The position numbers and the translations under genes were made by a program. This document shows, one piece after another, positions 3,065 through 22,438 of a stretch of DNA of 24,000 nt (position 1 is the stretch's first letter; each line of letters opens with the position of its first letter). The DNA lies in the NCBI RefSeq assembly GCF_000620785.1, contig NZ_JIAI01000018.1:89187-113186 (forward strand), read 5' to 3'. The DNA comes from Pseudonocardia acaciae DSM 45401. Lineage in GTDB: Bacteria > Actinomycetota > Actinomycetes > Mycobacteriales > Pseudonocardiaceae. The notes beneath the pieces are model-generated. The model saw only the letters and a program-made list of their open reading frames with translations, had not been told where the DNA came from and made no database searches.

Positions 3065-3075
3065 AGGGAACCACC

Positions 3076-7148: not shown

Positions 7149-7304
7149 CGTCGACCTCCCTGGCGTCCGCCCCGCGCCGGCAGTTCCGACCCACCGTACA
7201 GCCCAGCGCGGCGGGCGATCGCAAAAGCGAAACAAATACTAGCCGTTCGGATTGAAGCTGTTGTAGTCTCCTGACGCTGCTACTGGCGAGGAGGCGCGGC
7301 CGCG
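7149..7304. promoter_or_regulatory. Divergent promoter/operator region between the MFS-decarboxylase operon (-) and the Rieske oxygenase operon (+)
   Basis: A 156-bp non-coding gap flanked by divergent starts, each with a strong Shine-Dalgarno (GGGAGG for the minus gene, GAGGAGG 7288-7294 for the plus gene). It contains an AT-rich island at about 7221-7270, unusual for this DNA. It also contains a degenerate GAAAC-N26-GTTGT element at 7229-7264. I could not assign -35/-10 boxes confidently. Confidence 0.5.
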
Positions 7305-8564
7305 ATGTTGAAGCCCGAAGAGAACGAGCTGTTGTGTCGCGTCGGCCCCGACACCGGCATGGGTGGGCTGCTGCGGCGCTACTGGCTGCCGGTCGCGTGC
7401 GGCGACGAGCTGGTTGCCGGCGGCGCTCCGATTCGAACCAGGCTGCTTTCGGAAGACCTGGTTGCGTTTCGTGATCCGGGCGGCCGGGTGGGGGTTCTGG
7501 ACGAGCACTGCCCGCACCGGGGGGCGTCGCTGAGCCTGGCCCGCAACGAGGAGTGCGGCCTTCGCTGCATCTACCACGGCTGGAAGATCGGCGCGGACGG
7601 TCGGGTTCGGGAGACGCCGTCCGAGCCGGAGTCGAGCTCGTTCCGGCATCGGATCAGGCACGCGGCGTACCCGGTCCACGAGAGCGGCGGCCTGGTGTGG
7701 GCCTACCTCGGCTCGCAGGACGCGCCGGAGCCTCGGGCCTTCGAGTGGACGCTGTTGCCCGCCTCCCATTACGTGGTGTTCAAGGCGCGGGTGGCCTGCA
7801 ACTGGGTCCAGGGGCTGGAAGGCGTGATCGACTCCGCGCACCTGACGCACCTGCACAAGGACCTGTTCTTCCGGGCCGGCGACGCGGCCGGCGGTGAGCG
7901 GCTGGGGTCGATCTCGATGGACGGAAGCCCTCGGCTGGAGATCGAGGACACCGCGTACGGCTTCCGTTACGCCGCGTTGCGGCGGGCCGGGGACGAGGCC
8001 AGCCGGCTGGTCCGCCTGTCCCATTTCGTGGCGCCGTGTTTCGGCCTGTTCGCCGGGCCGATGGCGCTGCCCAGCGTGCAGGCGTACGTGCCGGAGGACG
8101 ACCACAACACGGCGATGTACTTCGTGATCGCCGACCGGGAGAACCCCATCGGCGAGGACCTCAGGGCCGCGCTGCGCACGGCGCTGGGCATGGTTCCCGG
8201 GGTCGACCTGGACGCCGGGCTGCGCCGGGTCCGGCGCGCGGAGAACGGGTGGCTGCAGGACCGCGAGGCGATGGGGCGGGGGGAGACCTTCACCGGAATC
8301 GCGGGCGTGAACGCCGAGGACCAGGCCGTCCAGGAAAGCATGGGCAGGCTTTACGACCGCGGCCGTGAGCATCTCGGCACCAGCGATGTGGCGGTCATCC
8401 GGATGCGCCGCATCATGATCAATGCGGCTCGCCGGTACCTGCGGGGCGAGCGGGACGATCTGGTCGGGCTCGGCGCCGGCGCGCGGACCGACGAGCTGTG
8501 CGGGTTCGAACGGCTGGCCCCGGCGGCCGTCCCGTGGCAGGAACTGGTCGGTGCCGATGCCTGA
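7305..8564 (+). CDS. Rieske non-heme iron oxygenase, alpha subunit, phthalate-dioxygenase family (alpha-only type, like PDO/VanA/CarAa/LigXa)
   Basis: Rieske motif CPHRGASLSLARNEECGLRCIYHGW (CxH-x16-CxxH). Mononuclear iron motif DSAHLTHLH (D-x2-H-x4-H). The N-terminus EENELLCRVGPDTGMGGLLRRYWLPV is typical of this family. No beta-subunit gene follows. Confidence 0.9.
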   Translation: MLKPEENELLCRVGPDTGMGGLLRRYWLPVACGDELVAGGAPIRTRLLSEDLVAFRDPGGRVGVLDEHCPHRGASLSLARNEECGLRCIYHGWKIGADGRVRETPSEPESSSFRHRIRHAAYPVHESGGLVWAYLGSQDAPEPRAFEWTLLPASHYVVFKARVACNWVQGLEGVIDSAHLTHLHKDLFFRAGDAAGGERLGSISMDGSPRLEIEDTAYGFRYAALRRAGDEASRLVRLSHFVAPCFGLFAGPMALPSVQAYVPEDDHNTAMYFVIADRENPIGEDLRAALRTALGMVPGVDLDAGLRRVRRAENGWLQDREAMGRGETFTGIAGVNAEDQAVQESMGRLYDRGREHLGTSDVAVIRMRRIMINAARRYLRGERDDLVGLGAGARTDELCGFERLAPAAVPWQELVGADA

Positions 8565-8793
8565 GCGGCTGGTGTGGCGGGCCGGCGACGCGGAGGCGAC
8601 GACCGCGCAGCTGCTCGACGACGTGCGCCGGCTCATCGTCGAGGCGCGCGAGCGCGGCGAGGACCCCGGGGAGCTGGTCGTGGACGAGGCGACCCGGCGA
8701 GTGCTGGACCTGACCAAACGGCGTGAGGTGCAGCGCGGCCAGCCCGTGCTGGTGCTCGGGCTGCGCGTGGTGAGCGAGGAGCGGTCCCGATGA
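8557..8793 (+). CDS. Hypothetical small protein (78 aa), function unknown
   Basis: ATG 8557 overlaps the oxygenase stop by 8 nt (ATGCCTGA). Its stop overlaps the next start (ATGA 8790-8793). GC3 is about 90% when read codon by codon. I recognise no family. Confidence 0.55.
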   Translation: MPERLVWRAGDAEATTAQLLDDVRRLIVEARERGEDPGELVVDEATRRVLDLTKRREVQRGQPVLVLGLRVVSEERSR

Positions 8794-9152
8794 GCGTGCA
8801 CGTCGGTCGAGAGGCGGATTTCGCCGAGGGGGACCGCAGGCTCGTCGTGTCCGGCGACACCCAGATCGGGGTGTTCCGGTTGAGCGACGGGTTCGTCGCC
8901 TACGAGAACAAATGCGTGCACCAGGGTGGCCCGGTGTGCCAGGGGCAGTATTTCCCGAAAATGGAGGCCGTCCTGGACGCCGAGGGCCGGGTGCTGGGAG
9001 AACGGGCGAACCCCGGGATCGCGCATCTGGTGTGTCCGTGGCACAGCTGGGAGTACGACATACGCACCGGGCGGATGGCCGCCGATCCCAGGATTCGGCT
9101 GCGTCGTTTCGAGGTGGTCTGCCGGGATGGCGAGGTCTACGTTGTCGCCTGA
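8790..9152 (+). CDS. Rieske-type [2Fe-2S] ferredoxin-like protein (120 aa) with atypically long inter-motif spacing
   Basis: CVH (CxH) and CPWH (CxxH) motifs, with WEYDIRTG after the second motif as in Rieske ferredoxins. GAGGAG lies about 8 nt upstream of the ATG. It sits in an operon with a Rieske oxygenase. Confidence 0.8.
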   Translation: MSVHVGREADFAEGDRRLVVSGDTQIGVFRLSDGFVAYENKCVHQGGPVCQGQYFPKMEAVLDAEGRVLGERANPGIAHLVCPWHSWEYDIRTGRMAADPRIRLRRFEVVCRDGEVYVVA

Positions 9153-9420
9153 GCGAGCGGCCGAACTGTTGGAGTCGTATGTCGACGAGCCGGACCTGGT
9201 CGGCGACGACGAGGTCAGCCGACTTTTCACCGCGGCATTCCGGCTGTTCGTCCACCGCGCCCGCCAGGGACTGCATCCATTCGCCGGCGACGTCACGGCC
9301 ACCGACGTGGTGATCGCGGCGACCGCGATGCTGCGCCAGCAGAACCTGGAGGTCTTCGAGCTCGCACTGTGGCAGAGCTTCGGCGGGCAGCCGTGGGTGG
9401 GCGCGGACGGGAGGGAATGA
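9127..9420 (+). CDS. Hypothetical small protein (about 92-97 aa), function unknown
   Basis: This is the C-terminal part of track ORF 8926-9420. GC3 is about 87%. Its stop TGA 9418-9420 is embedded in the start region of the next gene. The start is uncertain: ATG 9127 gives a 26-nt overlap with the ferredoxin, while TTG 9142 is preceded by GAGG. I recognise no family. Confidence 0.5.
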   Translation: MARSTLSPERAAELLESYVDEPDLVGDDEVSRLFTAAFRLFVHRARQGLHPFAGDVTATDVVIAATAMLRQQNLEVFELALWQSFGGQPWVGADGRE

Positions 9421-9422
9421 CG

Positions 9423-10598
9423 ATGTCCTTGTACGACCGAAGCCAGGTGCCGGTCCCGAACATGCTCACGAACGCGCGCAAACAGGCCGAAGAACGCAAC
9501 CTGTACGACTTCACGATTGTCGACGTCGACTCGCACCACTACGAGGACACGTCGACCTGGCAGACCCTGGTGCCCTACATCGAGGACGACGGCATCAAGG
9601 CGTGGGCCAGGCACCAGTTCGACAGGCAGATGGCCACCCGCGCGGTCGGGGCGCCGATCGGCGACCAGGAGCTGGCCGGCCGCATCCTGCGCGGCGGGCT
9701 GGACGTCCCCGACGAGCTGCGCGCGGACCGGCACGACGGTCGAAACCCGCTGGTGGCGCGCACGCTGTGGGCCATGGACAACCTCGGCATCGACTACACC
9801 GTGCTGTTCCCCACCGTCATGTTGACCTTGGGGCTGCACCCGCAGGTGGAGGTCGAGGTCGCGCTCGCCCGCGCCTATGCGCGGTGGCTGACCCGTGATG
9901 TCCTGACCCGGGACGGGCGGATTCGGACGATGGTCTACCTCCCGTTCAACGACCCGGCCGCCGCGCTGCGCATGGTGCGCGAGTTCGCCGACGAACCCGG
10001 CGTGGTCGGTTTCATGGTGACCAGCGTCCGCTACCGCCAGGTGCACGCCAACGAGTACGTGCCGGTGTACGCGGAGCTGCAGGAGCGGGGCATGCCGCTG
10101 GCGTTCCACGCCGCGTACAACTGGCACGACCGGTCGATGGGAATGCTCAACAAGTTCATCTCCGTCCACGCCCTGGGTTTCACCACCACCAACATGATCC
10201 ACCTCACCAACATGGTGATGAACGGTATTCCGGAGCGTTTCCCCGGCCTGAAGGTGGTGTGGGTGGAAAGCGGCCTGGCCTGGATACCGTTCCTGATGCA
10301 GCGGCTGGACAACGAGTACCTGATGCGCTCCAGCGAGGCCCCGATGCTGACCCGGCTGCCCAGCGAGTACATGCGGGACATGTACTACTCCTCGCAGCCC
10401 ATGGAGCGCACGGCGAAGATCGAGGTCATCGAGAACACCTTCGACATGATCAATGCCGAGCGGCGCCTGCTGTACTCGTCCGACTATCCGCACTGGGACT
10501 TCGACACCCCCGCGGTGATCTACGACCTTCCTTTCCTGGGTGAGAAGGCCAAGCGCCGCATCCTGGGGGAGAACGCGATCGAGCTGTTCGGGCTCTGA
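9423..10598 (+). CDS. Amidohydrolase_2 (PF04909/COG2159-type) metal-dependent hydrolase/decarboxylase
   Basis: N-terminal ligand motif VDVDSHHYE and C-terminal YSSDYPHWDFD, typical of the ACMSD/LigW/LigY/LigJ superfamily. GGGAGGG at 9409-9415 is 7 nt before ATG 9423. ATG 9417 is an alternative start and would give an ATGA overlap. Confidence 0.85.
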   Translation: MSLYDRSQVPVPNMLTNARKQAEERNLYDFTIVDVDSHHYEDTSTWQTLVPYIEDDGIKAWARHQFDRQMATRAVGAPIGDQELAGRILRGGLDVPDELRADRHDGRNPLVARTLWAMDNLGIDYTVLFPTVMLTLGLHPQVEVEVALARAYARWLTRDVLTRDGRIRTMVYLPFNDPAAALRMVREFADEPGVVGFMVTSVRYRQVHANEYVPVYAELQERGMPLAFHAAYNWHDRSMGMLNKFISVHALGFTTTNMIHLTNMVMNGIPERFPGLKVVWVESGLAWIPFLMQRLDNEYLMRSSEAPMLTRLPSEYMRDMYYSSQPMERTAKIEVIENTFDMINAERRLLYSSDYPHWDFDTPAVIYDLPFLGEKAKRRILGENAIELFGL

Positions 10599-10612
10599 GG
10601 AGAGACGGGATC

Positions 10613-11641
10613 ATGGCAGAGATCTGCACGGTCATATGCACCTCGCATTCGCCGTACCTGTTCGCGTCCGCGCGAGAATGGCGGCAGGCGCGGGACGAAC
10701 GGTCCAGGCAGGGCACGCTCGACGAGGCGGTCCCGCTCGACACGCCCGAGGAGAACGAGCGGAAGTTCCAGCGGTGCATGACCGCCCTGGCCACGCTGCG
10801 CGAGCGGCTCGACGCCGCGCGCCCCGACGTGCTGCTGGTGTTCGGCGACGACCAGGGCGAGCAGTTCAGCTTCACCAACTTCCCGGCGTTGGGGATCTTC
10901 GTCGGCCCGGGCTTCGAGGGATACAAGGTGTCCCGCTACTTCGGGCTCCCGATCATCGGGACGGCGCGGCCGACCAGGCCGAAGAGCATCGAGCACTGGG
11001 TCGCGGTCAAGGGCCATCCGAACCTGGCCAGGTACCTGATGGAGACCCTGACCGAGGACCGGTTCGACCTGGCCTTCTGCACCGGGCTGGCGGACATCGA
11101 GGAGGGCATGGGCCACGCCTTCATGCGCCCGTCCTACTACCTGCGCCCGGACTACGACCTGCCCACCGTCCCGTTCTTCATCAACTGCTACTACGCGCCG
11201 CAGCCGACCGGGCTGCGCTGCTACCAGCTGGGCCGCGCGGTCCGGGCCCGGATCGAGGCGTGGGACCAGGACCTGCGGGTCGCGGTGATCGGCTCGGGCG
11301 GGCTGTGGCACACCCCGGGCATGGCCGACGCCGGCCTGGACGAGGAGTTCAACAGGGGAGTCCTGGAGGCCGTGCGCCTCGGCGACGCACGGGCGATGGC
11401 CGACCACTTCGACGGCTGGGCGCTGGGCGCCGCGAACGTCTCGGACCGGGACACCGAGGCGTTCGCGGTGGCCAGCGGCGGGACGGGCATGCGAGGCGGG
11501 CTGGGCAGCGGCAGCGGGGAGACCCGCAACTGGATAGCGGCCTCGGCGGTGGCCGACGGGGCGGCGGGCACCGTCGTCGACTACGTGCCCGTCTACGACT
11601 CGCCGGTCGGTATGGCCTTCGCCCACTGGGAGCGGCCGTGA
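10613..11641 (+). CDS. Class III extradiol ring-cleavage dioxygenase, LigB family (single-subunit type, 342 aa)
   Basis: By eye it aligns without gaps to LigB/MhpB segments I recall. These are CTSHSP (His12), FGDDQGEQFSFTNFPALGI (equivalent to NDHASAF..IPTFAIG), VKGHPNLA, GHAFMRP, GSGGLWHTPG (catalytic His) and GETRNWIAA (Glu ligand). GGAGAG RBS upstream. Confidence 0.85.
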   Translation: MAEICTVICTSHSPYLFASAREWRQARDERSRQGTLDEAVPLDTPEENERKFQRCMTALATLRERLDAARPDVLLVFGDDQGEQFSFTNFPALGIFVGPGFEGYKVSRYFGLPIIGTARPTRPKSIEHWVAVKGHPNLARYLMETLTEDRFDLAFCTGLADIEEGMGHAFMRPSYYLRPDYDLPTVPFFINCYYAPQPTGLRCYQLGRAVRARIEAWDQDLRVAVIGSGGLWHTPGMADAGLDEEFNRGVLEAVRLGDARAMADHFDGWALGAANVSDRDTEAFAVASGGTGMRGGLGSGSGETRNWIAASAVADGAAGTVVDYVPVYDSPVGMAFAHWERP

Positions 11642-11660
11642 CCGGGACGGGGTGCTGACC

Positions 11661-12752
11661 ATGTACCACGGCGTCGCCGTCATCGACACCCACGGACACA
11701 TGTCCACACCGCCACAGTTCCGCGCCTACGCCTACAACCTGATCGCGCTGCGCAGCCCGGCCGCGATGCGGCTGAGCATCCCCGACGAGCAGATGGACGG
11801 GGCGCTGCGCCGCCACCTGCGGATCATGGACGAGCGCGCCATCGACCTGCAGCTCGTCTCCCCCCGACCGGTGGCGATGATGCACTGGGAGCGGCCGTTC
11901 CTGGTCCAGGCGTGGACCGAGACCACGAACGACGTCATCGCGTCGCAGTGCCGTGCCCATCCGACCCGGCTGGCGGGGGTGGCGCAGCTGCCGCAGAGCT
12001 CCGAGTGCGACACCGCCAACTGCGTCGCCGAGCTGCAACGGCGGGTGGCCGAGGGCTTCGTGGGCGCGCTGGTCAACCCGGACCCCGGCGCGGACCGCCG
12101 CACGCCCGCGATGAGCGAGCCGTACTGGTTCCCGCTCTACGAGGCGGCGCAGGACCTGGGGGCGACGCTGGTCGTGCACCCGTCGATCAGCCGCGACCCC
12201 CGGCTGGAGGCCGTCTCCCACGGCTACCAGCAGCACAACATGGCCGAGGAGACGCTCGCGACGATGCATCTCGAACAGGGGGAGGTGTTCGAGCGCTACC
12301 CCGGCCTGCGGGTCCTGGTGTGCCACTGCGGCGGCGCGCCGCGCCGGCTGCTCCAGGCGGGGCAGCGACTGCGGGTGGGCGCCTCGGAGGTGGTGGTGCG
12401 GTCCAGCGCCGAACGGGAAGGCGGCCAGGTCGGCATGCCGGTCACCGAGGTGGCGCGGACCCGGCGGGACCTGCGCGCCAACCTGTTCTTCGACACCTGC
12501 GCCTACGACCCGGACTTCCTCGCGACGGCGATCAGGCAGCGCGGGGTGGCCCAGATGGTGTTCGGCACCGAGGCCCCCGGCGCCGGCACCGGCGTGCTCA
12601 ACCCGGTCACCGGCCGCCCCTCCGACGACCTGGTGCCGGTGATCGACGCGATGGACTTCCTCAGCGCCGAGGACCGAACCCAGATCCTGCACCACAACCC
12701 CCGCGCCGCGTTCCCCCTGTTGCCCGAGCCCCAGGCGAGGAAAAGCCGATGA
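11661..12752 (+). CDS. Amidohydrolase_2 family protein, LigJ-like (4-oxalomesaconate hydratase-type)
   Basis: IDTHGH (HxH), DLQLVSPRP, VNPDP, YWFPLYEAA, VCHCGGA, LFFDTCAY and FGTEAPGAG..LSAEDRTQILHHN parallel the LigJ sequence as I remember it. GTG 11652 is an alternative start. The stop overlaps the next start (ATGA 12749-12752). Confidence 0.8.
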   Translation: MYHGVAVIDTHGHMSTPPQFRAYAYNLIALRSPAAMRLSIPDEQMDGALRRHLRIMDERAIDLQLVSPRPVAMMHWERPFLVQAWTETTNDVIASQCRAHPTRLAGVAQLPQSSECDTANCVAELQRRVAEGFVGALVNPDPGADRRTPAMSEPYWFPLYEAAQDLGATLVVHPSISRDPRLEAVSHGYQQHNMAEETLATMHLEQGEVFERYPGLRVLVCHCGGAPRRLLQAGQRLRVGASEVVVRSSAEREGGQVGMPVTEVARTRRDLRANLFFDTCAYDPDFLATAIRQRGVAQMVFGTEAPGAGTGVLNPVTGRPSDDLVPVIDAMDFLSAEDRTQILHHNPRAAFPLLPEPQARKSR

Positions 12753-13879
12753 ACGAGCCGTTGCTGCTTGTGCCCGGTCCGTGCACCGTCGAGCCCGACG
12801 TGCTCGCCACCCTCGGGCGGCCCGTCCCGCTTCACTACGGACCGCACTGGACGGCCACCTACGACCGGCTGCGGCGGCAGCTGGCGGAGGTGTTCGGTAC
12901 CGCCGGCGAGGTCCACCTGTTGTTCGGGCCCGGCTCGGCCGGCATGGAGATGACCTTGGGCAGCGTCCTCGCGCCCGGCGACGAGCTGGTCGTGGTGGTG
13001 GAGGGCATCTTCGGGCAGCGGCTGGTCGAGATCGCGCGGACGTTGGGCCTGGTCGTGCACGAGCTGCGCACCGAGGGCACCCGGCCGGCGGGCGGTGAGG
13101 AGCTTGCCGCGATGCTGGGCGGGCACCCGGCCGTTCGGGCGGTCGCGATGGTGCACCACGAGACGGGGACGGGCGTGCTCACCCCGGTCGAGCGGCTGTG
13201 CCGCACCGCCAGGGCGGCGGGGCTGATCACCGTGGTGGACGCGATCTCCTCGCTGGGCGGCGCGCCGCTGCGGATGGACGACTGGGGTGTCGATCTGTGC
13301 GTCACGGTGGCCAACAAGTGCCTCGGCGGGCCGGTCGGGGTGGCGCCGGTCGCGGTGGGTCCCCGCGCGCTGGAGCTGATCAGCGCCCCGCCCGCGCGGC
13401 GGCGCAAGGCGGTCGGGTGGTACCTCGACCTGGCCACCTGGCACCGCTATCAGGACATGTGGTCCAGCTGGCACCCGCACCCGACCACGATGCCCGGCAA
13501 CGTGGTGCACGCGCTCGCCACCGCGACGGACCGGATCTTCGAGGTCGGGCTGGACGCGCACCATCGGCGGATCGCCGCCGCCGCGCGGCAGGCCCGGGGT
13601 GGGCTGCGCGCCCTCGGCCTGTGCACCCTGGTGCCGGACGAGATCGCCGCCCCGGCGGTGACCTCGGTGCGGGCGCCGGACGGCATGGACGTCGACCACT
13701 ACCTGCGATGGCTGGTCGACAAGCACGGCATGCTGGCCGCGGCCGGGCTGCCCCCGCACGCCGGCGCCTCGTTCCGGGTCGGGCACATGGGCCGGGCCGC
13801 CGAGCCAGGGGTCGTCACCGACTGGTTGGACGCCACCCGGGACTACCTGCGCATCGAGGGCATCGGGGCGCGGTCGTGA
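12749..13879 (+). CDS. Class V (AGXT/PhnW-like) PLP-dependent aminotransferase
   Basis: This is the last 376 codons of track ORF 11912-13879. It has LLLVPGPCTV at the N-terminus. The PLP-lysine motif VTVANKCLGGP resembles the SANKC motif of 2-aminoethylphosphonate:pyruvate aminotransferase rather than the SQK of AGT-type enzymes. Start and stop are both coupled to neighbours. Confidence 0.85.
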   Translation: MNEPLLLVPGPCTVEPDVLATLGRPVPLHYGPHWTATYDRLRRQLAEVFGTAGEVHLLFGPGSAGMEMTLGSVLAPGDELVVVVEGIFGQRLVEIARTLGLVVHELRTEGTRPAGGEELAAMLGGHPAVRAVAMVHHETGTGVLTPVERLCRTARAAGLITVVDAISSLGGAPLRMDDWGVDLCVTVANKCLGGPVGVAPVAVGPRALELISAPPARRRKAVGWYLDLATWHRYQDMWSSWHPHPTTMPGNVVHALATATDRIFEVGLDAHHRRIAAAARQARGGLRALGLCTLVPDEIAAPAVTSVRAPDGMDVDHYLRWLVDKHGMLAAAGLPPHAGASFRVGHMGRAAEPGVVTDWLDATRDYLRIEGIGARS

Positions 13880-15525
13880 CCGGCGCCGACGCGCTGCTGG
13901 ACGCCCTCGCCGACGGCGGCGTGCGGGCCATCTTCACGGTGCCCGGGGTGCAGCTCGACGCGCTGTTCGACGCCCTGGCCCGTCGGGACGGCGCGTTCCG
14001 GGTCTGGCACACCCGCCACGAGCAGGCCACCTCGTACATGGCCGACGGCTACACCCGGGTCAGCGGCGAGCCGTCCTGCTGCCTGGTCGTTCCCGGACCC
14101 GGGCTGCTCAACGCCACCGCAGGCCTGGCCACCGCGTACGCCCGCAACACCCCGATCCTGTGTGTGGCCGGGCAGATCCCGTCGGCCACCATCGGCGCGC
14201 AGCTCGGCCAGCTGCACGAGCTGCGGGACCAGGCGGCCGCGCTGCGCGCCGTGGTGAAGTGGTCCACCACCGTGATGCGGCCCGGCGAGCTGGGTCCGGC
14301 GGTGGCCGAGGCACTGCGCCGGATGCGCACCGGCCGTCCGCGCCCGGTCGCCGTGGAGGTGCCCCCCGACGTGCTGGAAGCGGCCCGCCCGCCGACCGAC
14401 CGGGCCGCGACCGACCCGGCCGGCCCGGCCGACCCGAGCGACGCGTGGACGCCGGACCCGGATCCGGACGACCTGGACCGGGCCGCCGCGCTGCTCACCG
14501 CGGCGCAACGGCCGTTGGTCCTGGCCGGCGGCGGGGTGCTCGTCGCGGGCGCCTGGGACGAGCTGCGCGAGCTGGCCGAGCGCGCCGGCGCCCCGGTCGT
14601 CATGACGGCCGACGGCAAGGGCGCCCTCGACGCGCGCCACCCGCTGGCCTGCGAGCCGACCCTCGGACCTCGCCTGACGCCCACCGCGGACGTGATCCTG
14701 GCCGTGGGCACCCGCCTCGGCCTCCCGATGGGCCGGCGGCTGCCGTTCGGGCCCGACCAGAGGCTGGTCAGGATCGACGCGGACGCGGCCGAGCTGCGCC
14801 GCGAGGTCAGCCCCGAGATCGCCATCCACGCCGACGCCCGCCTCGCCCTCGCCCAGCTCGCCGAGCGACTGCCCCGCTCCGGCCGAACCCCGAGCTGGCC
14901 CGACCTGACCCGGCTGCGGGAGGACGCGGCGGCCACGGTGCTCGCCCTGAGGCCGCAGGCCCACTACGGCGAGGCGATCCGCCGCGCCGTCCCCGAGGAC
15001 GGCATCGTCGTGGCCGGGATGACCCAGATCGGGTACTGGTGCCGGCTCGGCTTCCCGGTGTGGCGGCCGCGAACCTTCCTCACACCCGGTTACCAGGGCA
15101 CGCTCGGCTTCGAGCTGCCCACCGGGCTCGGCGCCCAGCTCGCCGCGCCGGACACCCCGGTGGTCGTGCTGGCCGGCGACGGCGGGTTCCTGTTCAACGT
15201 CCAGGAGCTCGCCACCGCGGTGCTGCACGACATCCCGGTGGTGGCCGTGGTGTTCAACGACGGCGCCTACGGCAACGTCCGGCGTACCCAGATGGAGCGG
15301 TTCGACGGACGCTGCATCGCCTCGGAGCTGCACAACCCGGACTTCCCGGCGTTGGCGGAGTCGTTCGGGGTGCGCGGGGTCCGCGCGGTCGGTCCGGACG
15401 CGCTGGAGCGTGCCCTCGGCGCCGCGATCGAGGCCCGCCGGCCCACGGTGATCGAGGTTCCGGTCGGGCCGATGCCCGACCCGTGGGCGATGCTCACCAT
15501 GAAACACGAACGAGTAAGTCGTTAA
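13876..15525 (+). CDS. Thiamine diphosphate-dependent enzyme (acetolactate synthase large subunit / benzoylformate decarboxylase-like, 549 aa)
   Basis: GTG 13876 overlaps the upstream stop (GTGA). The N-terminal PYR domain reads GADALLDALADGGVRAIFTVPG..HEQATSYMADGY. The ThDP motif is GDGGFLFNVQELATAV..VVFNDGAYG. It ends with the only TAA stop in the window, inside an AT-rich patch. Confidence 0.9.
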   Translation: MTGADALLDALADGGVRAIFTVPGVQLDALFDALARRDGAFRVWHTRHEQATSYMADGYTRVSGEPSCCLVVPGPGLLNATAGLATAYARNTPILCVAGQIPSATIGAQLGQLHELRDQAAALRAVVKWSTTVMRPGELGPAVAEALRRMRTGRPRPVAVEVPPDVLEAARPPTDRAATDPAGPADPSDAWTPDPDPDDLDRAAALLTAAQRPLVLAGGGVLVAGAWDELRELAERAGAPVVMTADGKGALDARHPLACEPTLGPRLTPTADVILAVGTRLGLPMGRRLPFGPDQRLVRIDADAAELRREVSPEIAIHADARLALAQLAERLPRSGRTPSWPDLTRLREDAAATVLALRPQAHYGEAIRRAVPEDGIVVAGMTQIGYWCRLGFPVWRPRTFLTPGYQGTLGFELPTGLGAQLAAPDTPVVVLAGDGGFLFNVQELATAVLHDIPVVAVVFNDGAYGNVRRTQMERFDGRCIASELHNPDFPALAESFGVRGVRAVGPDALERALGAAIEARRPTVIEVPVGPMPDPWAMLTMKHERVSR

Positions 15526-15539
15526 TGTTTTGTTTCGAA
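15498..15539. promoter_or_regulatory. Candidate operator-like inverted repeat CATGAAAC-N26-GTTTCGAA at the 3' side of paaX
   Basis: Read directly from the sequence: ATGAAAC at 15499-15505, a 26-nt spacer, then GTTTC at 15532-15536. The core and spacing are identical to the repeat at 16485-16530. It overlaps the last codons of the ThDP gene and the 20-bp convergent gap. Function is inferred only. Confidence 0.4.
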
Positions 15540-15545
15540 ATTGAT

Positions 15546-16394
15546 TCAAGTTGGATAGCGGGTCACGGCTTGCTGGTAGTACTTCGCGGCGGGTTCTTCC
15601 AAGATCCCGTAGACGCGCAGGAAGAGCTGGTGGGCAATTCGACCCCGCCAGTCGTTCGGGAGCAGTCGGGGATGCAGGTCCGGATCATGGAATGAGGCGT
15701 TGCGATAGCCGTAGAGCACCTCGACCCGCAGCGCGAACGAGTCCTGGTCGCTGAGATCGGCCAGCGCCGCGTCGTCGAACCGGGAGTAGCGGTCGATGAA
15801 CTCGGCGTACTCCTCGTTGAGGCGCCGCAGGTCCCAGCAGCGGTTCGCCATGACCCGGTCGTGCTCCGCGGAGATGCTGCTCGCGACCAGCGGGTCCAGC
15901 CGCAGCTCGGGCTCCTCGCCGATCTCCTCCAGCGCCGCGTCGAGCCGGTCGTGGCTACAGATCCAGGTGGAGGTCGCCAACGGCCCGAACCCGTGCCAGT
16001 CCAGGATGCGGCGGATGCGGATGCGGGTGGCGCGACGGGCCTCCGGCACCGTGTAGATGATCATTCGCCATCTGCCGTCCCACAGGTCACCGTCGCGCCG
16101 GTAGAGCCGGCCCTCGCCGGCCCGCATGAGCTGGCTGGTCTGGTCGGTCATGGTGATCACGCTGCGCCGGCCCTCGCGCTGCACCGCTACCCAGCCCTCC
16201 CGGCGCAGGCGCGAGATGACGACCCTGGTGGCGTCGGGGGACGTGCCGAAGGCGCCCATGAGCTCGGCCATGGCCTGCATGCTGATGCGGCCCGTGTCGT
16301 GCCGGACGAACCCCCCGAGCAGGTCCAGGACGATCTCACGGGCCGGAATGGTCGGCCGGTCCCCGGTCGACCCACTTGTTCGCGTGCTACCCAC
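15546..16394 (-). CDS. paaX: PaaX-family transcriptional repressor (phenylacetyl-CoA-responsive regulator family)
   Basis: A 282-aa ORF with a GTG start (complement of 16392-16394) preceded by GAGGGG at 5 nt. It has an N-terminal winged-helix region (IVLDLLGGF..ISMQAMAELMGAFG..ATRVVISRLRREGW). The central and C-terminal segments are PaaX-like (WDGRWRMIIYTVPE..R..IRRILDWHGFGPL). Confidence 0.9.
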   Translation of the reverse strand: MGSTRTSGSTGDRPTIPAREIVLDLLGGFVRHDTGRISMQAMAELMGAFGTSPDATRVVISRLRREGWVAVQREGRRSVITMTDQTSQLMRAGEGRLYRRDGDLWDGRWRMIIYTVPEARRATRIRIRRILDWHGFGPLATSTWICSHDRLDAALEEIGEEPELRLDPLVASSISAEHDRVMANRCWDLRRLNEEYAEFIDRYSRFDDAALADLSDQDSFALRVEVLYGYRNASFHDPDLHPRLLPNDWRGRIAHQLFLRVYGILEEPAAKYYQQAVTRYPT

Positions 16395-16484
16395 GGCGGC
16401 CCCTCGGTGAGCTTCGGTTCCCTCGAACTATAGGCAGTCCCCCGGGGTGCCCTCGTCGCCGCGCCGGGCTGCCCGGCCGAGATC

Positions 16485-16530
16485 AATATGAAACTAGTAG
16501 TTGCCGGACGGATAGATTTCGTTTCATACT
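16485..16530. promoter_or_regulatory. Candidate PaaX-type operator: AATATGAAAC-N26-GTTTCATACT in the paaX/MFS divergent region
   Basis: Read directly: 10-bp arms (16485-16494 and 16521-16530) are complementary at 9 of 10 positions, with a 26-nt spacer. The repeat lies in an AT-rich island of the 169-bp divergent gap. The right arm overlaps a -10-like CATACT (16525-16530) that is 18 nt downstream of TTGCCG (16501-16506). Short half-sites about 26-27 bp apart match what I recall of E. coli PaaX operators. Confidence 0.55.
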
Positions 16531-16563: not shown

Positions 16564-17838
16564 ATGTTCCGTTGGGTTGTTGCCGCCTTCCTCACCCTGT
16601 ACACGATGATCAACGTCGTGGACCGGGTCGCGATCTCGGTCGGGACCGAACCGATCACCCGTGAGCTGGGCCTCAACCCCGCGCAGTGGGGGTTGGTGCT
16701 GGGGGTCTTCTTCGTCGGCCTGGTACCGGCAACGATCGCGACCGGCTACCTCGCCGATCGCCACGGCGCCCGGCGATGGCAGCTCATCGGCGCGACCTCC
16801 TGGTCGCTGCTCACCGCGGCGACCACCCTGGTCAACAGCTTCGGAGCGCTCCTGGTGGTGCGGTTCCTGTTCGGGGTCGGCGAGGGGCCCGGCGGCTCCG
16901 TCGGCGGCCGGGTGATCGCCAACTGGATTCCGGCCCGGCAACGCGGCAGGACGTTCAGCATGATCATGGTCGGCATCCAGCTGGCCCCGGCCCTGGGCGT
17001 CCCGCTGATCGCCTGGATCATGGTCGAGCTGGGCTGGCGCCCGGCGTTTCTCATCCTCGGCGGTGTCGGCCTGCTGTGGGTGCTGGCCTGGCGGGTGATC
17101 TTCACCGACGATCCGGCCCGCAACCGATTCGTCGGCGAACGCGAGCTCGCCGTCATCCAGCGGGGCATCACCACACCCGAGCACCTGCGGGCCGTCCCGG
17201 AAACCGGGCTCCGTCCCGACAGGATGAGGACCCTCGCCGGGTGCTTCTGGGGAATGTTCTGCACCGGCTACCTTCTCTACTTCCTGCTCACCTGGTTACC
17301 GGGCTACTTCTCGATGGCTCGAGGGCTGGACCTGAAACAGATGGGTGTGGCGGCGAGCCTGCCCTGGCTCGGTGGGGTCCTCGGCGTGCTGCTCGGGGGG
17401 CTGCTCACCGACCGCATCCTGGCCCGAACCGGCCGGTTCCGCTGGGCGCGGGCCTATCCGGCCTCGGCGGCCCTGCTGGTGTCCGCGATCGGCCTCTACA
17501 TCTGCGCGAGCGCCGTCTCCCTTCCCGCCGCCATCGCCCTGCTCGCCCTGGTCAGCTTCTGCCTCGGCTGGATCGGCCCCGTGCTCAGCTCCGTCGTGCT
17601 CGACGTGACCTGGCGGCGCGCCGGCCTGTTCTCCGGCGTCAGCCAGGCGCTCGAGGCCACCGCGGGCGTCGTCGCACCGGTGCTCACCGGCGTCATCGTC
17701 AACCGATCCGGCTCGTTCGACCTCGCGTTCACCATCGCCGCCCTGGTCGCGGCCAGCGGGGCCGTCGCGGTCTTCGGCCTGGTCCGGCACGCGGGCGACG
17801 CGTCGACGGCGCCGGAACGCCAGAAGGAGTCACGGTGA
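16564..17838 (+). CDS. MFS transporter, anion:cation symporter (ACS) family (OphD/HpaX/DgoT-like organic-acid permease)
   Basis: The N-terminus FLTLYTMINVVDRVAISVGTEPITRELGL and LFGVGEGPGGSV..NWIPARQRGR are typical of ACS-family MFS proteins. GGGAG lies 7 nt before ATG 16564. There are about 12 hydrophobic segments. Confidence 0.85.
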   Translation: MFRWVVAAFLTLYTMINVVDRVAISVGTEPITRELGLNPAQWGLVLGVFFVGLVPATIATGYLADRHGARRWQLIGATSWSLLTAATTLVNSFGALLVVRFLFGVGEGPGGSVGGRVIANWIPARQRGRTFSMIMVGIQLAPALGVPLIAWIMVELGWRPAFLILGGVGLLWVLAWRVIFTDDPARNRFVGERELAVIQRGITTPEHLRAVPETGLRPDRMRTLAGCFWGMFCTGYLLYFLLTWLPGYFSMARGLDLKQMGVAASLPWLGGVLGVLLGGLLTDRILARTGRFRWARAYPASAALLVSAIGLYICASAVSLPAAIALLALVSFCLGWIGPVLSSVVLDVTWRRAGLFSGVSQALEATAGVVAPVLTGVIVNRSGSFDLAFTIAALVAASGAVAVFGLVRHAGDASTAPERQKESR

Positions 17839-17849
17839 GACACGCTCAC
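17835..17849. repeat. Short inverted repeat GTGAG-acacg-CTCAC spanning both convergent stop codons
   Basis: Read directly. The left arm contains the MFS stop TGA (17836-17838). The right arm contains the complement of the acylase stop (17846-17848). Only 7 nt separate the two convergent CDSs. Terminator function is unproven. Confidence 0.4.
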
Positions 17850-20116
17850 TTCGCGAGTTGGCCCGGCGCGTAACTCCGCTCGACATGGCCCTTGAGGTCG
17901 TCGGGATAGAAATAGACGGGCCGGAGGTTGCCGCTCGCGTAGCGTTCGGCCTGGTCGTTGAAGTGCGGCGAGTCGGGATGTCCGCTCGCGCCGCCCGTGG
18001 TGACAGCCCAGGCGCGCACCTTCGGCCCGAACTCCACGGTCGCCACGAAACTGTTGCCGCTGGTGCCGTAATAGCGCTTCGTGCCGGGCCAGCGCTTCGC
18101 CGCGAATGACGCGAGGGAGCCCCACCGGGCGGAGGTGAACGGCACCGGGATGCTCGGCTTGGCATCGTCGAACTTCTGGACGATCGCGCCGTCGTTGCGC
18201 TGGAAGCGGTTGATCTCGCCCCACGGCACCTGCCAGCCGCCGAAATCCTGCGTGAGCCGGTCCATCGCCGATTCGAGCGCCGCGAGCCGCTGCGCATCGG
18301 TGGCGCGGTCGGCCATGTAGTCGGATACCGACAAACCCGCGGCCGCGGCCGGCCGGGCCGAGGTCGCCCAGAGTGCCTCGGCCCAGAAAACGGCCAGCGA
18401 GGTCGGGGTCGATGCCGTGGCCCAGCGATAGTCCCAGCCGCGCAGCAGGCCGATCGGGCCGGCGAGCTTCGCCTTGTGCAGATCGCCCTCGGGGAGGCGG
18501 TCCCACCCCGCGACCAGCCCCGGCACGAGCCGGGCGAAGCCGGTGAGATAGGGATCGAAGGCGGCCGCGATCAGCGTCTCCGGCGTGAAGTCGGTTCGGG
18601 CGCTCAGCACCCGGACCGCGTGCGGCCCGCGCGCGTTCTCCCCGGCACCGTCGAAATAGCGGGGATAGTTCGCGGCCTTGGGGCTGTCCGGGCCGGCGGC
18701 GGTCCATGGCCAGTTGTTCGAGTTGAACGCCCAACCATTCTTCGGATTCACCACCTGGGGCAGGCTTTCGAGGCTGTGCAGCTCACGCCAGTCGGTCGCC
18801 GGATCGCTGCCGTCGACGGGTTTGCGATAGTCGAACCGATCGTCGCGCACCGGCATGAACTGGGGCATCAGGAAGGCGATCTCGCCCTTCGAGTCCGCGA
18901 ACAGCGTGTTGTTCGAGCTGTTGGCCTTGAGTCCGGCCACCTCGAGGAAGCCCGCGTAGTCCCGCGCCTTGGTGCGCAGGAAGCTCTGCTGCAGCGCCTC
19001 GATCGGCTTGTTCATCAGCGCGAACGCGATCCATCTGCCGTCCGCCTCGCGCACGATCGGGCCGTGGTGCGTGGCGAAGGTGGTGAAGCTGCGCTGCGCA
19101 GGCCGGCCGTCCTCGGTGCCGTAGGACAACGTGATCGTCTTCGTCGTCACCGGCCGCAGCGCGTCGCCGTAGCGGTAGGAGTGGCTGCCGTCCGTCCCGG
19201 TCACGATCGTCTCGGCGAACTGGTCGGCATTGTCGACCCCACTCGACGTGTGCATCCATCCGGCGTCGGCGTTGAACCCCTGGTAGATGAAGAACTGGCC
19301 CCAGGTGGCGGCGCCGTAGACATTGAGCCCTTGCTCGCTGGTGACGTGTTGCTCGGAGCGGAAGAAGAAGCTGGTGTGCGGGTTGATCAGGAGCAGCGCG
19401 TGGCCGTCCCGGGTATGGCTCGGCGCGATGGCCATGCCATTCGAGCCGGTGGGCTCGCGGAACAACAACCGGCGCTCGTCATCGGTCATCGGCACCGGGC
19501 GCTTGCCGTAGAAGGCCTCGACCTGGCTCAGTGGCGCTCGCTCGATGTCGCCGCCGATGCTGCCTTCGGAGAAACTCAGCGGCATCCACGGCTCGAACCG
19601 GTTGATGACGCGTGGACGCACCTCGGGATGCGTCGCGAGGTAATAGTTCAGCCCGTCCGCCCAGGCCTGCATCAGCTCGCGCAACCAGGCCGGGCACCGC
19701 TCGTAGTCTCCCTTCAGCACCTCGGGGTCGATGAACAGGCGCTGGCGCAGGTCCTGCCAGATCGCGCTCTCACCCTCGGCCTCGGCGAGGCGGCCGAGGC
19801 TGGTCAGATAGTTGGTCTCGATCCGGTTGAAGTCGTCCTCGGCCTGGGCATAGATCATCCCGAACACCGCGTCGGCGTCGGTCTTTCCCGAAACGTGCGC
19901 GATGCCCCAGTCGTCGCGGGTTATCGTCACGTGCTCCGCCCGCGCGCGTAGGCGGTCGAGATCGGGCGGGGTCTGCGTCTGCGTGGAAGTGGCGGTGCCA
20001 CAGGCCGGCAGTCCCACCGCGACCGCCACGGCACCGGCGGCCAGTCCGGCCGCTCCGCCCAGGACGCGGCGTCGGCTCAGGCCCTTGTTCCGCGCGTTGT
20101 TCATATGTTGGCTCAC
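17846..20116 (-). CDS. Penicillin acylase family (S45 Ntn-hydrolase) protein, predicted Tat-exported lipoprotein
   Basis: A 756-aa ORF. The N-terminus SRRRVLGGAAGLAAGAVAVAVGLPAC combines a twin-arginine motif with a lipobox-like LPAC. The candidate autoprocessing site is TG/SNGMAIAP, with Ser225 at codon 19442-19444. The C-terminus GASGHPDSPHFNDQ is typical of the family. The start may instead be ATG 20102-20104, which is preceded by AGGTGA. Confidence 0.9.
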   Translation of the reverse strand: MSQHMNNARNKGLSRRRVLGGAAGLAAGAVAVAVGLPACGTATSTQTQTPPDLDRLRARAEHVTITRDDWGIAHVSGKTDADAVFGMIYAQAEDDFNRIETNYLTSLGRLAEAEGESAIWQDLRQRLFIDPEVLKGDYERCPAWLRELMQAWADGLNYYLATHPEVRPRVINRFEPWMPLSFSEGSIGGDIERAPLSQVEAFYGKRPVPMTDDERRLLFREPTGSNGMAIAPSHTRDGHALLLINPHTSFFFRSEQHVTSEQGLNVYGAATWGQFFIYQGFNADAGWMHTSSGVDNADQFAETIVTGTDGSHSYRYGDALRPVTTKTITLSYGTEDGRPAQRSFTTFATHHGPIVREADGRWIAFALMNKPIEALQQSFLRTKARDYAGFLEVAGLKANSSNNTLFADSKGEIAFLMPQFMPVRDDRFDYRKPVDGSDPATDWRELHSLESLPQVVNPKNGWAFNSNNWPWTAAGPDSPKAANYPRYFDGAGENARGPHAVRVLSARTDFTPETLIAAAFDPYLTGFARLVPGLVAGWDRLPEGDLHKAKLAGPIGLLRGWDYRWATASTPTSLAVFWAEALWATSARPAAAAGLSVSDYMADRATDAQRLAALESAMDRLTQDFGGWQVPWGEINRFQRNDGAIVQKFDDAKPSIPVPFTSARWGSLASFAAKRWPGTKRYYGTSGNSFVATVEFGPKVRAWAVTTGGASGHPDSPHFNDQAERYASGNLRPVYFYPDDLKGHVERSYAPGQLAK

Positions 20117-20188: not shown

Positions 20189-20968
20189 TCAGCCGGCGGG
20201 ACTCAACCGTGCCTGGATGGCCCGCACCGACCGGCGGAGCGTGGCGGAGAGCTCTCGTTCGGTCGCCGTCTCGGTGTCGTCGCGTTCGAGCAGCAGCCGG
20301 GCCTGCGGGCCGGCGACGGTGACCGCGATCGGCGGCATCCTGGCGGGCCCGTGCACCGCCATCGCCAGCGCCGCCACGCCCGGTTCGGTGTCCTCCACGT
20401 TGCGTGCGTAGCCGCGCCGGCGGACCGCCTCCAGCTCGGTCTCCAGTGCCTCGCGCGTCGGGGTCGACGTCCGGCCGACGGTGAGCAGCGTCGGCTCCGG
20501 GTAGAGCTTGCGCAGCGCGACCACCGGCAGCGTGGCCAGCAGCGCGCGGCCGGCCGAGGCGGCGTGGGCGGGGAGCAGGTCGCCGACCCGGGACTCGACG
20601 CGCATCGTGTGCCGGGAGACGATCGTGTAGAAGAACCGCACGTTGCGGCCGTGCAGCGCGGCCAGGTGGACCGTCTCGCCGGTGGCCGCCTGGAGCTGGC
20701 GCAGCTGGTCCTGGGCGATCGCGATGTAGTCGGCGTCCGAGCTCTCCGGGCGCAGCGCGAGCAGCGCCGGCCCCAGGCAGTACGCGCGGGAGTCCGCCGC
20801 CCGGCGGGCGAACCCCCTGGCCTCGAGCGTCGCGAGCAGCCGGTGCACCACCGAGGTGCCCACCCCGAGGACCTCGGCCGCCCCGGAGACGGTGACCTCG
20901 CTGTGCACCCGCAGCAGCTCGATGAGCTGGAGCGCGCGGTCCACGGTTCGCAGCACGGGAACTGACAT
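20189..20968 (-). CDS. IclR-family transcriptional regulator
   Basis: This is the last 259 codons of track ORF 20189-21856. It has an N-terminal HTH (VLRTVDRALQLIELL..VTVSGAAEVLGVGTSVVHRLLATLEARGF) and a C-terminal effector domain (GRALLA..GYARNVEDTEPGVAALAMAV). Confidence 0.9.
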   Translation of the reverse strand: MSVPVLRTVDRALQLIELLRVHSEVTVSGAAEVLGVGTSVVHRLLATLEARGFARRAADSRAYCLGPALLALRPESSDADYIAIAQDQLRQLQAATGETVHLAALHGRNVRFFYTIVSRHTMRVESRVGDLLPAHAASAGRALLATLPVVALRKLYPEPTLLTVGRTSTPTREALETELEAVRRRGYARNVEDTEPGVAALAMAVHGPARMPPIAVTVAGPQARLLLERDDTETATERELSATLRRSVRAIQARLSPAG

Positions 20969-21085: not shown

Positions 21086-22438
21086 ATGACCAACAGCTCG
21101 AACAGCGACGTCCGAGGGGGCTCGACCGCGTCGGAGCTCGGCGGCGCGGGGAACACGGCCGACAGCCCGGCGGCCCGGCGCGCGGTGGTCAGCGGCGCGG
21201 TCGGATCCGCGCTGGAGTGGTTCGACTTCTCCGTCTACGGCGCGCTGTCCGCCACGGTGTTCCCGAAGCTGTTCTTTCCCGAGCTGGCTCCGGGGGTCGG
21301 CCTGCTGGCCAGCTTCGCCACGTTCGGCGCGGGGTTCTTCGCCCGGCCGCTCGGCGGGCTGGTCTTCGGTGTGCTGGGCGACCGGGTGGGCCGCAAGCGG
21401 GTGCTCACCTGGACGCTGCTCCTGATGGGCGCGGCGTCGACCTTGATCGGGCTGCTGCCCACCTACGGCAGCGTCGGGTTCGTCGCTCCGCTGTTGCTGG
21501 TGATGCTCCGGTTCCTGCAGGGCCTGGGGCTCGGCGGCGAGGCCACCGGGTCCCAGCTGCTGTCCATGGAGCACGCGCCCGAGGGCAAGCGTGGCCGCAA
21601 CGGCGCGCTGATGGCGATCGGCTCGCCGATCAGCCAGGTGGTCGCCACCCTGGCGCTCACCGCGCTGGCCGCGACGATGTCGGCGGAGGCGTTCGCCGGC
21701 TGGGGGTGGCGGGTCCCGTTCCTGTTCAGCGTCGTGCTCATCGGGGTCGGCGTCTACATCAGGGCGCGGGTGGCCGAGACCCCGCTCTTTCTCGCCGATG
21801 CGCGAGCCTCGGACAAAAGGGACCGGCCCTCCGCGCTGACGGTGTTCAGGACGCATCCGAGGATTCTCACCCTGCTCGTGCTGACCTGGGCCTCGTCGGC
21901 GTCGGTCTTCTACATTTGCGTCACCTTTGCCATCAGCTATCTGACCGGCACCCTCGGGCTGAGCAACAGCATCAGTTTCAGCCTGCTGCTGACCGGCAAC
22001 GCGCTGTCCATCGCCGCCGGCGTGCTGGGCGGCTGGCTCAGCGACCGCATCGGCCGCCGGAAGGTCTTCGCCATCGGCACGGTCGGGCTGCTGGTGTCGG
22101 TCGTTCTGCTGTTCCCCCTTCTCGACCTGCGGAGCTGGTGGGCGAGCGCGGCGGTGATCAGCCTCGCGCTCTGCTCGGTGCAGCTGAACGCGGGGGTGCA
22201 GCCGGCGTTCTACGCGGAGGCGCTGCCGACCTCGGTGCGGTACACCGGATCCGCGATGGGGTACACCCTGGCGAACCTGATCTTCAGCGCGCCGACCCCG
22301 TTCATCGCCGCCTTTCTGCTCGGGCTCTTCGGGGGCAACCCGATCGGCGTCACGGGTTATGGGCTCGTGATCGTCATCATCTCGGCGGTGGCCCTGTACT
22401 TCATGCCCGAGCGCTACGACCGGCCGCTGGAGCGCTGA
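21086..22438 (+). CDS. MFS transporter, metabolite:H+ symporter (MHS) family (KgtP/ProP/ShiA-like)
   Basis: GSALEWFDFSVYGALSATVFPKLFFP, LGDRVGRKRVL and LRFLQGLGLGGE are signature-like for MHS transporters. The protein is 450 aa. Confidence 0.85.
   Translation: MTNSSNSDVRGGSTASELGGAGNTADSPAARRAVVSGAVGSALEWFDFSVYGALSATVFPKLFFPELAPGVGLLASFATFGAGFFARPLGGLVFGVLGDRVGRKRVLTWTLLLMGAASTLIGLLPTYGSVGFVAPLLLVMLRFLQGLGLGGEATGSQLLSMEHAPEGKRGRNGALMAIGSPISQVVATLALTALAATMSAEAFAGWGWRVPFLFSVVLIGVGVYIRARVAETPLFLADARASDKRDRPSALTVFRTHPRILTLLVLTWASSASVFYICVTFAISYLTGTLGLSNSISFSLLLTGNALSIAAGVLGGWLSDRIGRRKVFAIGTVGLLVSVVLLFPLLDLRSWWASAAVISLALCSVQLNAGVQPAFYAEALPTSVRYTGSAMGYTLANLIFSAPTPFIAAFLLGLFGGNPIGVTGYGLVIVIISAVALYFMPERYDRPLER

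Follow-up and report, generated by a model that had tools for sequence, protein, structure and literature searches.

Gene Layout and Inverted Repeats of the Window

The stretch of DNA analyzed here (the window, meaning the whole 24-kb stretch from Pseudonocardia acaciae DSM 45401, to which all coordinates refer) encodes a PaaX-like regulator of 282 aa on the minus strand (15546–16394), recognized by three PaaX Pfam domains and bracketed by two inverted repeats with the core GAAAC-N26-GTTTC. The regulator gene is divergent from an MFS transporter gene on the plus strand (16564–17838; Pfam MFS_1). At its 3' end it converges with a row of aromatic-catabolic genes, also on the plus strand (7305–15525), which according to Pfam encode, in this order, a LigXa-like Rieske oxygenase, a small uncharacterized open reading frame (ORF), a Rieske ferredoxin, an Amidohydro_2 protein, a LigB-type dioxygenase, a further Amidohydro_2 protein, a class-V aminotransferase, and a thiamine pyrophosphate (TPP) enzyme. 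A first-pass annotation of the same DNA had counted nine genes in this operon; about eight are clear and the ninth is not demonstrable. A second MFS transporter gene, likewise assigned by Pfam, lies on the minus strand, divergent from the Rieske operon (5793–7148; likely ATG at 7148). This layout is based on Pfam scans of selected ORFs of the window and on an independent gene call on the only other contig found, from Logan run SRR3452918, which is identical to the window. The portion of the gene row from 7305 to 12752, with its LigXa-like, LigB-type, and two Amidohydro_2 products, is reminiscent of the pathway for 5,5'-dehydrodivanillate (lignin biphenyl) known from Sphingobium SYK-6 (LigX, LigZ, LigY, LigW); the class-V aminotransferase and TPP enzyme genes extend this lignin-biphenyl-like row.

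An exact pattern search on both strands found GAAAC-N26-GTTTC exactly twice in the window, at 15501–15536 and 16490–16525. The two pairings described in the first-pass annotation thus stand, while its estimate of about ten occurrences of each half-site was too low, GAAAC and GTTTC being counted 13 times each. Shuffles keeping dinucleotides predict 0.02 such matches; shuffling in 60-nt blocks, which keeps local AT-richness, gave a mean of 0.0065 matches per window and not a single window with two or more among 2000, in agreement with the earlier judgment that the pairings are unlikely to have arisen by chance. When the arms are extended to TGAAAC-N26-GTTTCA, the match is perfect at 16489–16526 (site 1) and amounts to 11 of 12 positions at 15500–15537 (site 2) and 9 of 12 at 7228–7265. 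The last of these, site 3, had been overlooked, as had two features inside what had been taken for a spacer, namely the palindromic centre CCGnnCGG and a -35 hexamer. The repeat pairs lie in locally AT-rich, intergenic stretches with a GC content of 46–58%, compared with 71% for the whole window.

A Composite Element Beside PaaX-like Genes

For comparison, we used 80 loci encoding homologs of the regulator (GTDB), mostly from Actinomycetota and many genera, with a few labelled Chloroflexi or Dormiibacterota. The exact GAAAC-N26-GTTTC pattern had no match in these 80 loci, in which other arm triplets are used. Generic inverted 6-mers upstream of the homologs showed no peak at any spacing until AT-containing words were demanded, and a degenerate TGnnnC/GnnnCA pattern was discarded as too noisy for GC-rich DNA. 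With AT-containing inverted hexamers, TGTTTC-N26-GAAACA and TGTGTC-N26-GACACA emerged, and these elements share the layout of site 1, namely an arm, 6 nt, TTGACGAACGG, 9 nt, and the second arm. The spacing is sharply defined: in the 80 loci, TGTxxC/GxxACA pairs were separated by N26 in 22 instances, by N27 in three and by N28 in two, and by any other distance (10–44) at most once; the everted control was nearly empty, with no more than four pairs at any spacing.

With an iterated position matrix of 62 columns, trained on the homolog loci without the window, 67 of the 80 loci yielded a total of 106 sites, of which 103 are distinct. Phylogenetic footprinting, which had been proposed in the first-pass annotation as a check, thus places the N26 element beside PaaX-like genes family-wide. 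Relative to the regulator gene, 54 of these sites lie on the 5' side at a distance of up to 260 nt and 24 on the 3' side at up to 200 nt, with the other 28 elsewhere in the clusters, and 18 loci carry both a 5' and a 3' site.

The consensus of the 38-bp element, tGTGTC-Aaat-T-n-TTGACG-nn-CGt-c-N7-T-GaCACA-nAaT, can be simplified to TGTGTC-N6-TTGACGnnCGT-N9-GACACA, followed by a -10-like CAnAaT. Both the arms and the centre, ACGnnCGT, form palindromes about a single dyad, and TTG (positions 13–15) and T42 have no mirrored counterpart. TTGACG, an 18-nt spacer and CAnAaT can be read as a -35/-10 pair whose -10 hexamer overlaps the downstream arm. Because TTG and T42 are asymmetric and start codons follow 0–60 nt past the sites in 71 of 78 cases, we regard the element as a promoter with an operator wrapped round it. 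Several homolog start codons are near enough to suggest leaderless transcripts.

Among 58 homolog target genes, FAD-dependent (flavin adenine dinucleotide) monooxygenases (20) and MFS transporters (17) predominate, followed by cupins (4) and hydrolases; no paa gene was among them. A protein of 770–840 aa without Pfam domain is also found among these targets. Its family, for which the only match is a weak one to an NCBIfam polyhydroxyalkanoate (PHA)-depolymerase catalytic domain, recurs in Kribbella and other actinobacteria, where its genes immediately follow PaaX-type sites (loci L029 (4953–7271), L033, L040, L042, L067, L017, L039, L043, L051, and L069). One further locus, L065 (799–1658 and 3942–4801), contains two near-identical operator sites, each followed by a 270-aa ORF of matching length, the second being the PaaX-like match; this would be a duplicated regulator–operator module within one metagenome-assembled genome.

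Three Family-Type Sites in the Window

Scored with the family matrix on both strands, the window rises above zero at only three positions, 16489 (plus strand, 23.9), 7228 (plus strand, 19.9), and 15500 (minus strand, 17.7), which correspond to sites 1, 3, and 2, respectively; the maximum in 40 block-shuffled windows was 7.0. The "shared extension" of the regulator-proximal arms noticed in the first-pass annotation holds for 12 of 16 positions by our own count and corresponds to the AT-rich stretch flanking the family motif on its 5' side, which contributes 6.5 and 6.1 bits.

Site 1 (16489–16526, plus strand) occupies the divergent region between the regulator and MFS genes. This 38-bp predicted composite operator/promoter reads TGAAAC tagtag TTGCCGGACGG atagatttc GTTTCA, then tact, with arms at 16489–16494 and 16521–16526, the central palindrome CCGGACGG at 16504–16511 and a -35-like TTGCCG at 16501–16506. 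The arms are part of a longer inverted repeat of 12 nt with 92% complementarity (16483–16494/16521–16532). The site scores 23.9 on the plus and 21.3 on the minus strand, and its score was not equalled in any of 50,000 shuffles of its own 62 nt. The -10-like CATACT (16525–16530, plus strand) that the first-pass annotation had seen overlapping this site is indeed present, 18 nt after TTGCCG, overlapping the right arm and at the position of the family CAnAaT. The ATG of the MFS gene at 16564 begins 38 nt past the end of site 1, and we infer that CATACT together with TTGCCG would constitute the promoter of this gene; the two hexamers match the sigma-70 consensus at 8 of 12 positions (own count), below the threshold of 9 used in a simple promoter scan. 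On the minus strand, a mirror -10-like CATATT (16485–16490) overlaps the left arm. To the minus-strand score of 21.3 the -10 tail contributes +6.8 and the -35 part a poor -0.5, and this side is a candidate promoter of the paaX-like gene, which would then be autoregulated.

Site 3 (7228–7265, plus strand) reads CGAAAC aaatac TAGCCGTTCGG attgaagct GTTGTA, then gtct. It was found by a mismatch search, matching 15 of 18 positions of the window template versus 13 for the next best place, and scores 19.9 on the plus and 10.4 on the minus strand, the former being equalled in none of 50,000 self-shuffles. Its parts are a -35-like TAGCCG (7240–7245), the centre CCGTTCGG (7243–7250), and a -10-like TAGTCT (7264–7269), arranged as TAGCCG-N18-TAGTCT. 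The Rieske ATG at 7305 begins 40 nt past the end of the site, and the likely start of the second MFS gene at 7148 keeps it wholly intergenic. Site 3 is the predicted promoter/operator of the Rieske/LigB operon and would tie the regulator to the catabolic genes; the MFS gene at 5793–7148 is possibly co-regulated from it.

Site 2 (15500–15537, minus strand) reads CGAAAC aaaaca TTAACGACTTA ctcgttcgt GTTTCA, then tggt, with a -35-like TTAACG (15525–15520) and a -10-like CATGGT (15501–15496) in the arrangement TTAACG-N18-CATGGT. Starting at the 3' end of the regulator gene, it is directed into the convergent TPP-enzyme gene, whose 3' end it faces. The two convergent stop codons are 20 nt apart and the TPP stop codon TAA (15523–15525) lies inside the site, where, read on the other strand, it forms the first three bases of TTAACG. 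One detail of the earlier description needs correcting: the left arm of the site falls within the last codons of the TPP gene. On the plus-strand reading only GAAAC and GTTTC are complementary; as CGAAACA/TGTTTCA, 6 of 7 bases are. The score of 17.7 on the minus strand (-3.0 on the plus strand) was equalled in 5 of 50,000 self-shuffles. Site 2 retains the family 5' flank, the spacer, both arms and the -35-like and -10-like hexamers; the right half of its centre is lost, as is likewise the case in 10 of the 106 family sites. A gene begins within about 60 nt downstream of sites 1 and 3 but not of site 2, in front of which lies the 3' end of the TPP gene. As side observations at this junction, the homology of the TPP enzyme, whose C-terminal tail was checked for an aberrant extension into site 2, ends at residues 528–542 of 549, as it does in many solved relatives, and the half-site TGATTC of Escherichia coli PaaX occurs at 15543–15548, overlapping the stop codon of the PaaX-like gene; the latter is probably a coincidence, with no GAATCA partner seen about 27 bp away on either side.

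The homolog loci give site 2 a context. Where the gene after the regulator is co-directional, 21 of 48 loci carry a 3' site; where it is convergent, 0–1 of 26 do (p = 3e-4 to 2e-5). Such 3' sites point outward in 22 of 24 instances, in the same orientation relative to the regulator gene as site 2. Each of those checked belongs to a co-directional gene that follows it, apart from one that sits at a contig end. Operators on the 3' side of the regulator gene are a recurrent arrangement in the family, found here without the target. Since 3' sites of homologs occur only with a co-directional gene and the neighbor is convergent in the window, site 2 is most likely an orphaned (relic) promoter–operator, which may still bind the repressor; the simplest account is that a rearrangement took away the original downstream target.

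In two respects the window departs from the family norm. Sites 1 and 3 share the symmetric centre CCGnnCGG where the family has ACGnnCGT, position 16 of the centre being C in the window versus A in 95% of family sites, and arm position 3 is A in the window versus T in 91% of them (TGAAAC versus TGTGTC, TGTTTC, or TGTAAC).

The Regulator and Known PaaX Operators

The regulator matched all three Pfam domains of PaaX well above the respective cut-offs: PF07848 (PaaX, winged-helix) with 43.1 bits (cut-off 24.8), PF20803 (PaaX_M, Cas2-like) with 67.5 bits (24), and PF08223 (PaaX_C) with 65.8 bits (22). The structure of E. coli PaaX (PDB 8A39) aligned with residues 19–270 at E = 1.4e-28. Against the true-PaaX equivalog TIGR02277 the regulator reached 169.4 bits, below the cut-off of 264.55, and its best relatives in a set of 5.8 billion proteins and in GTDB genomes are 43–45% identical; for these two reasons we call it PaaX-like rather than PaaX. 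Neither a phenylacetyl-CoA oxygenase nor a CoA ligase was matched by Pfam among the selected ORFs across the window. At conserved winged-helix positions the regulator has unique residues (T55A, Y80I, L82M, D91R, E92A, and R94E), and these, taken together with the changed arms and centre of its putative sites, would fit a re-specified protein–operator pair. A PDB sequence search with the regulator returned no PaaX–DNA complex, the sole close solved structure being without DNA, in keeping with a 2022 review according to which no such complex had been solved (PMC9493321).

E. coli PaaX binds TGATTC(N27)GAATCA, is autoregulated, and represses by competing with RNA polymerase (PMC9493321). Reading the K-12 paaA promoter (Pa) directly, we found TGATTC-N27-GAATCG, so that the operator architecture given in the first-pass annotation was correct, as was its remark that the half-site of the window differs (TGAAAC versus TGATTC). 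The E. coli operators (Pa, Pz, and Px) and the sites of the window have in common a regulator with the same three Pfam domains, inverted hexamers of the type TGnnnC...GnnnCA about three helical turns apart, an overlap with promoters (predicted in the window), and an autoregulated regulator gene (a candidate feature in the window). They differ in the half-site, in the spacing (26 instead of 27), and in the content of the spacer, which in the window holds a co-centred CCGnnCGG and a -35 hexamer, with nothing comparable seen by eye in K-12 Pa; the targets in the window would be the MFS gene and the Rieske/LigB operon rather than paa genes, and the protein falls below the TIGR02277 cut-off. In Pseudomonas sp. 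Y2, whose regulator is a proteobacterial true PaaX, the consensus is GATACA-N26-TGTATC, with half-sites that differ from those of the window as well. The Y2 sites resemble ours in that they control aromatic (styrene/phenylacetate) catabolic promoters, and the review, where it refers to del Peso-Santos 2006, speaks of "a similar sequence" to that of E. coli (PMC9493321).

A third counterpart is the composite element of the actinobacterial homolog loci, which agrees with the window sites in the order of its parts (arm, N6, -35 plus centre in 11 nt, N9, arm, -10 tail), the N26 spacing, the position 0–60 nt before start codons, and the pairing of 5' and 3' sites in 18 loci. Besides the differences in arms and centre described above, it is unlike the window in that a 3' site facing a convergent gene was shown by no homolog locus. 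A search of the available literature found no description of an actinobacterial PaaX operator, of a PaaX–DNA structure or of the composite element.

Interpretation and Alternatives

Taken together, the repeats are probably PaaX-like repressor sites of the actinobacterial composite promoter–operator type, with sites 1 and 3 controlling the MFS gene and the Rieske/LigB operon and site 2 orphaned. The core of the first-pass annotation, PaaX-type operators with a different half-site, gains support from the N26 architecture and from its conservation in the family. In the model that we derive from these sequence comparisons, the PaaX-like repressor encoded between the sites would bind the repeats, a bound dimer would cover the whole promoter and thereby exclude RNA polymerase, and an aromatic effector would release the repressor from the DNA. 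The regulator of the window would be a specificity-switched member of its family, recognizing TGAAAC/GTTTCA arms and a CCGnnCGG centre instead of the usual TGTGTC/GACACA and ACGnnCGT. Site 1 would control the divergent MFS gene and probably the regulator gene too, and site 3 the catabolic Rieske/LigB operon. In relatives, a site placed and oriented like site 2 would drive a co-directional gene after the regulator; such a gene is absent here, and a convergent operon runs into the site.

Several observations weigh against this interpretation. A simple sigma-70 scan called no promoter at any of the three sites, and a metagenome scan with TGAAAC-N9-CCGnnCGG-N9-GTTTCA gave 21 matches, none of them beside a PaaX-like gene. 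A close orthologue of the regulator is absent from the 5.8-billion-protein set and the GTDB genomes (45% identity at most), which precludes footprinting of the exact TGAAAC variant. Since related species served to train the matrix, the sites it collected are not independent of one another, and the right arm of site 3 is degenerate (GTTGTA). Site 2, in turn, keeps near-perfect arms that a long-abandoned relic would not need, and with 7 of 12 sigma-70 consensus matches, versus 8 of 12 for site 1, it may be active. Apart from these considerations, several of the metagenome matches were recognized as an unrelated palindromic hairpin-like repeat, GATCTGAAACGCAAGCTyCCCGGCCGGGGCCTTTGGGTTTCAG, on soil contigs (L083, L084, L086, L091, and L093).

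It is possible, though not likely, that site 2 is no relic but still works as an auxiliary element. It might act as a second operator in cooperation with site 1, 989 bp off, via looping or a higher local repressor concentration, or a repressor-controlled antisense promoter whose transcript enters the 3' end of the catabolic operon. Such a role would agree with arms equal in quality to those of site 1 (6/7 palindromic, 11/12 to TGAAAC/GTTTCA), with the preservation of TTAACG-N18-CATGGT, the family 5' flank and the spacer, with the occurrence of "left CG only" centres in 10 of the 106 accepted family sites, and with a matrix score far exceeding the shuffles. It is at odds with the loss of the near-invariant centre positions C21 and G22, with the absence of 3' sites from all of the roughly 25 homolog loci in which the downstream gene is convergent, and with the lack of any gene or Rfam family downstream on the minus strand. 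Looping would also need oligomerization beyond the dimer, and we know of none in the PaaX family, which counts against it. The proposal of the first-pass annotation that a repressor at site 2 acts as a roadblock against read-through from the operon is weak and was rejected on logical grounds, as the repressor would quit site 2 under the very conditions that induce the operon, so that the roadblock would be lifted at just that moment. Its further idea, that the two repeats mark the ends of a regulator cassette, came nearest to what we observed, in that the regulator is bracketed by two sites in 18 homolog loci, but the 3' sites checked there serve a co-directional gene, which the window lacks.

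A more far-reaching version of our interpretation appears doubtful as a whole. It would hold that the actinobacterial PaaX branch uses an undescribed tripartite operator (7-bp arms, ACGnnCGT, and an embedded promoter) and responds to aromatic effectors other than phenylacetyl-CoA, that the re-specified regulator of the window governs a lignin-biphenyl-type (LigXa/LigB/amidohydrolase) pathway, and that the 3' site is an active, repressor-controlled antisense promoter or a looping partner tuning the end of the convergent operon.

We consider it improbable that site 2 serves chiefly as a hairpin at the transcript end (terminator or stabilizer) common to the convergent regulator and TPP genes, its likeness to site 1 being secondary. 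The minus-strand RNA of 15490–15560 does fold at -16.1 kcal/mol (z = -3.15; 0 of 200 shuffles as stable), and site 2 is located between stop codons only 20 nt apart. However, the plus-strand fold is unremarkable (z = -0.74), the stem is AU-rich without a U-tail, and a generic terminator scan found nothing here or at the other two sites. The inner palindrome AACGA/TCGTT is moreover 2.5 bp off the dyad of the arms, and a hairpin leaves the exact N26, the family flank and the -35 match unexplained. A hairpin is nonetheless compatible with the other explanations and could mark the end of the regulator transcript.

Very improbable, in our view, is that the elements are bound by another factor, or merely represent a shared promoter type, with the PaaX-like protein acting at other places. 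Admittedly, the block conserved most strongly, TTGACG, is a generic -35 hexamer, but palindromic arms at a fixed N26 and a symmetric centre are not promoter features, 67 of 80 loci, from many actinobacterial genera, have their sites clustered beside PaaX-like genes, the architecture agrees with the experimentally defined E. coli PaaX operator, and nothing else in the 24-kb window scored above zero. It is hardly conceivable, finally, that both N26 pairs arose by chance from AT-rich intergenic DNA within a GC-rich genome: the sites do sit in AT-rich stretches, yet none of the 2000 block shuffles yielded two matches, and the self-shuffles reached the family matrix score in only 0, 0, and 5 of 50,000 cases.

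Other Genes of the Window

Beyond the MFS gene controlled, as we suppose, from site 1, the window encodes a penicillin-amidase family protein (17846–20116, minus strand; 1.4 kb from the PaaX-like gene), an IclR-type regulator (20189–20968, minus strand), and a further MFS transporter (21086–22438, plus strand). No family-type site scoring above zero lies upstream of the penicillin-amidase gene, which may be co-transcribed with the IclR-type gene. For E. coli W, the titles of references cited in a review connect PaaX with the gene for penicillin G acylase (PMC9493321). At the other end, before the cluster, hydantoinase A/B genes (oxoprolinase or acetophenone-carboxylase type) and a gene for a class II aldolase-domain protein (3–4801) are without an associated PaaX-type site. 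Within the catabolic gene row, the 216 nt that separate the Rieske ferredoxin gene from the first Amidohydro_2 gene (9153–9368) contain no PaaX-type site, and the downstream ORF has no in-frame start codon there; the stretch may represent an internal gap or a promoter within the "operon". An Rfam search of the window matched no family.

Conclusions

The analysis overturns no established idea and holds no conceptual surprise. Its immediate yield is a testable regulon for an orphan PaaX-like repressor, comprising the MFS gene and the Rieske/LigB aromatic-degradation operon. It further provides an operator model for actinobacterial PaaX-like regulators that can be used for target annotation across many genomes and for which, family-wide, we know of no earlier description. 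The paired change in arms, centre and winged-helix residues would, beyond that, offer a natural case for studying how specificity is reprogrammed in a poorly understood repressor fold.

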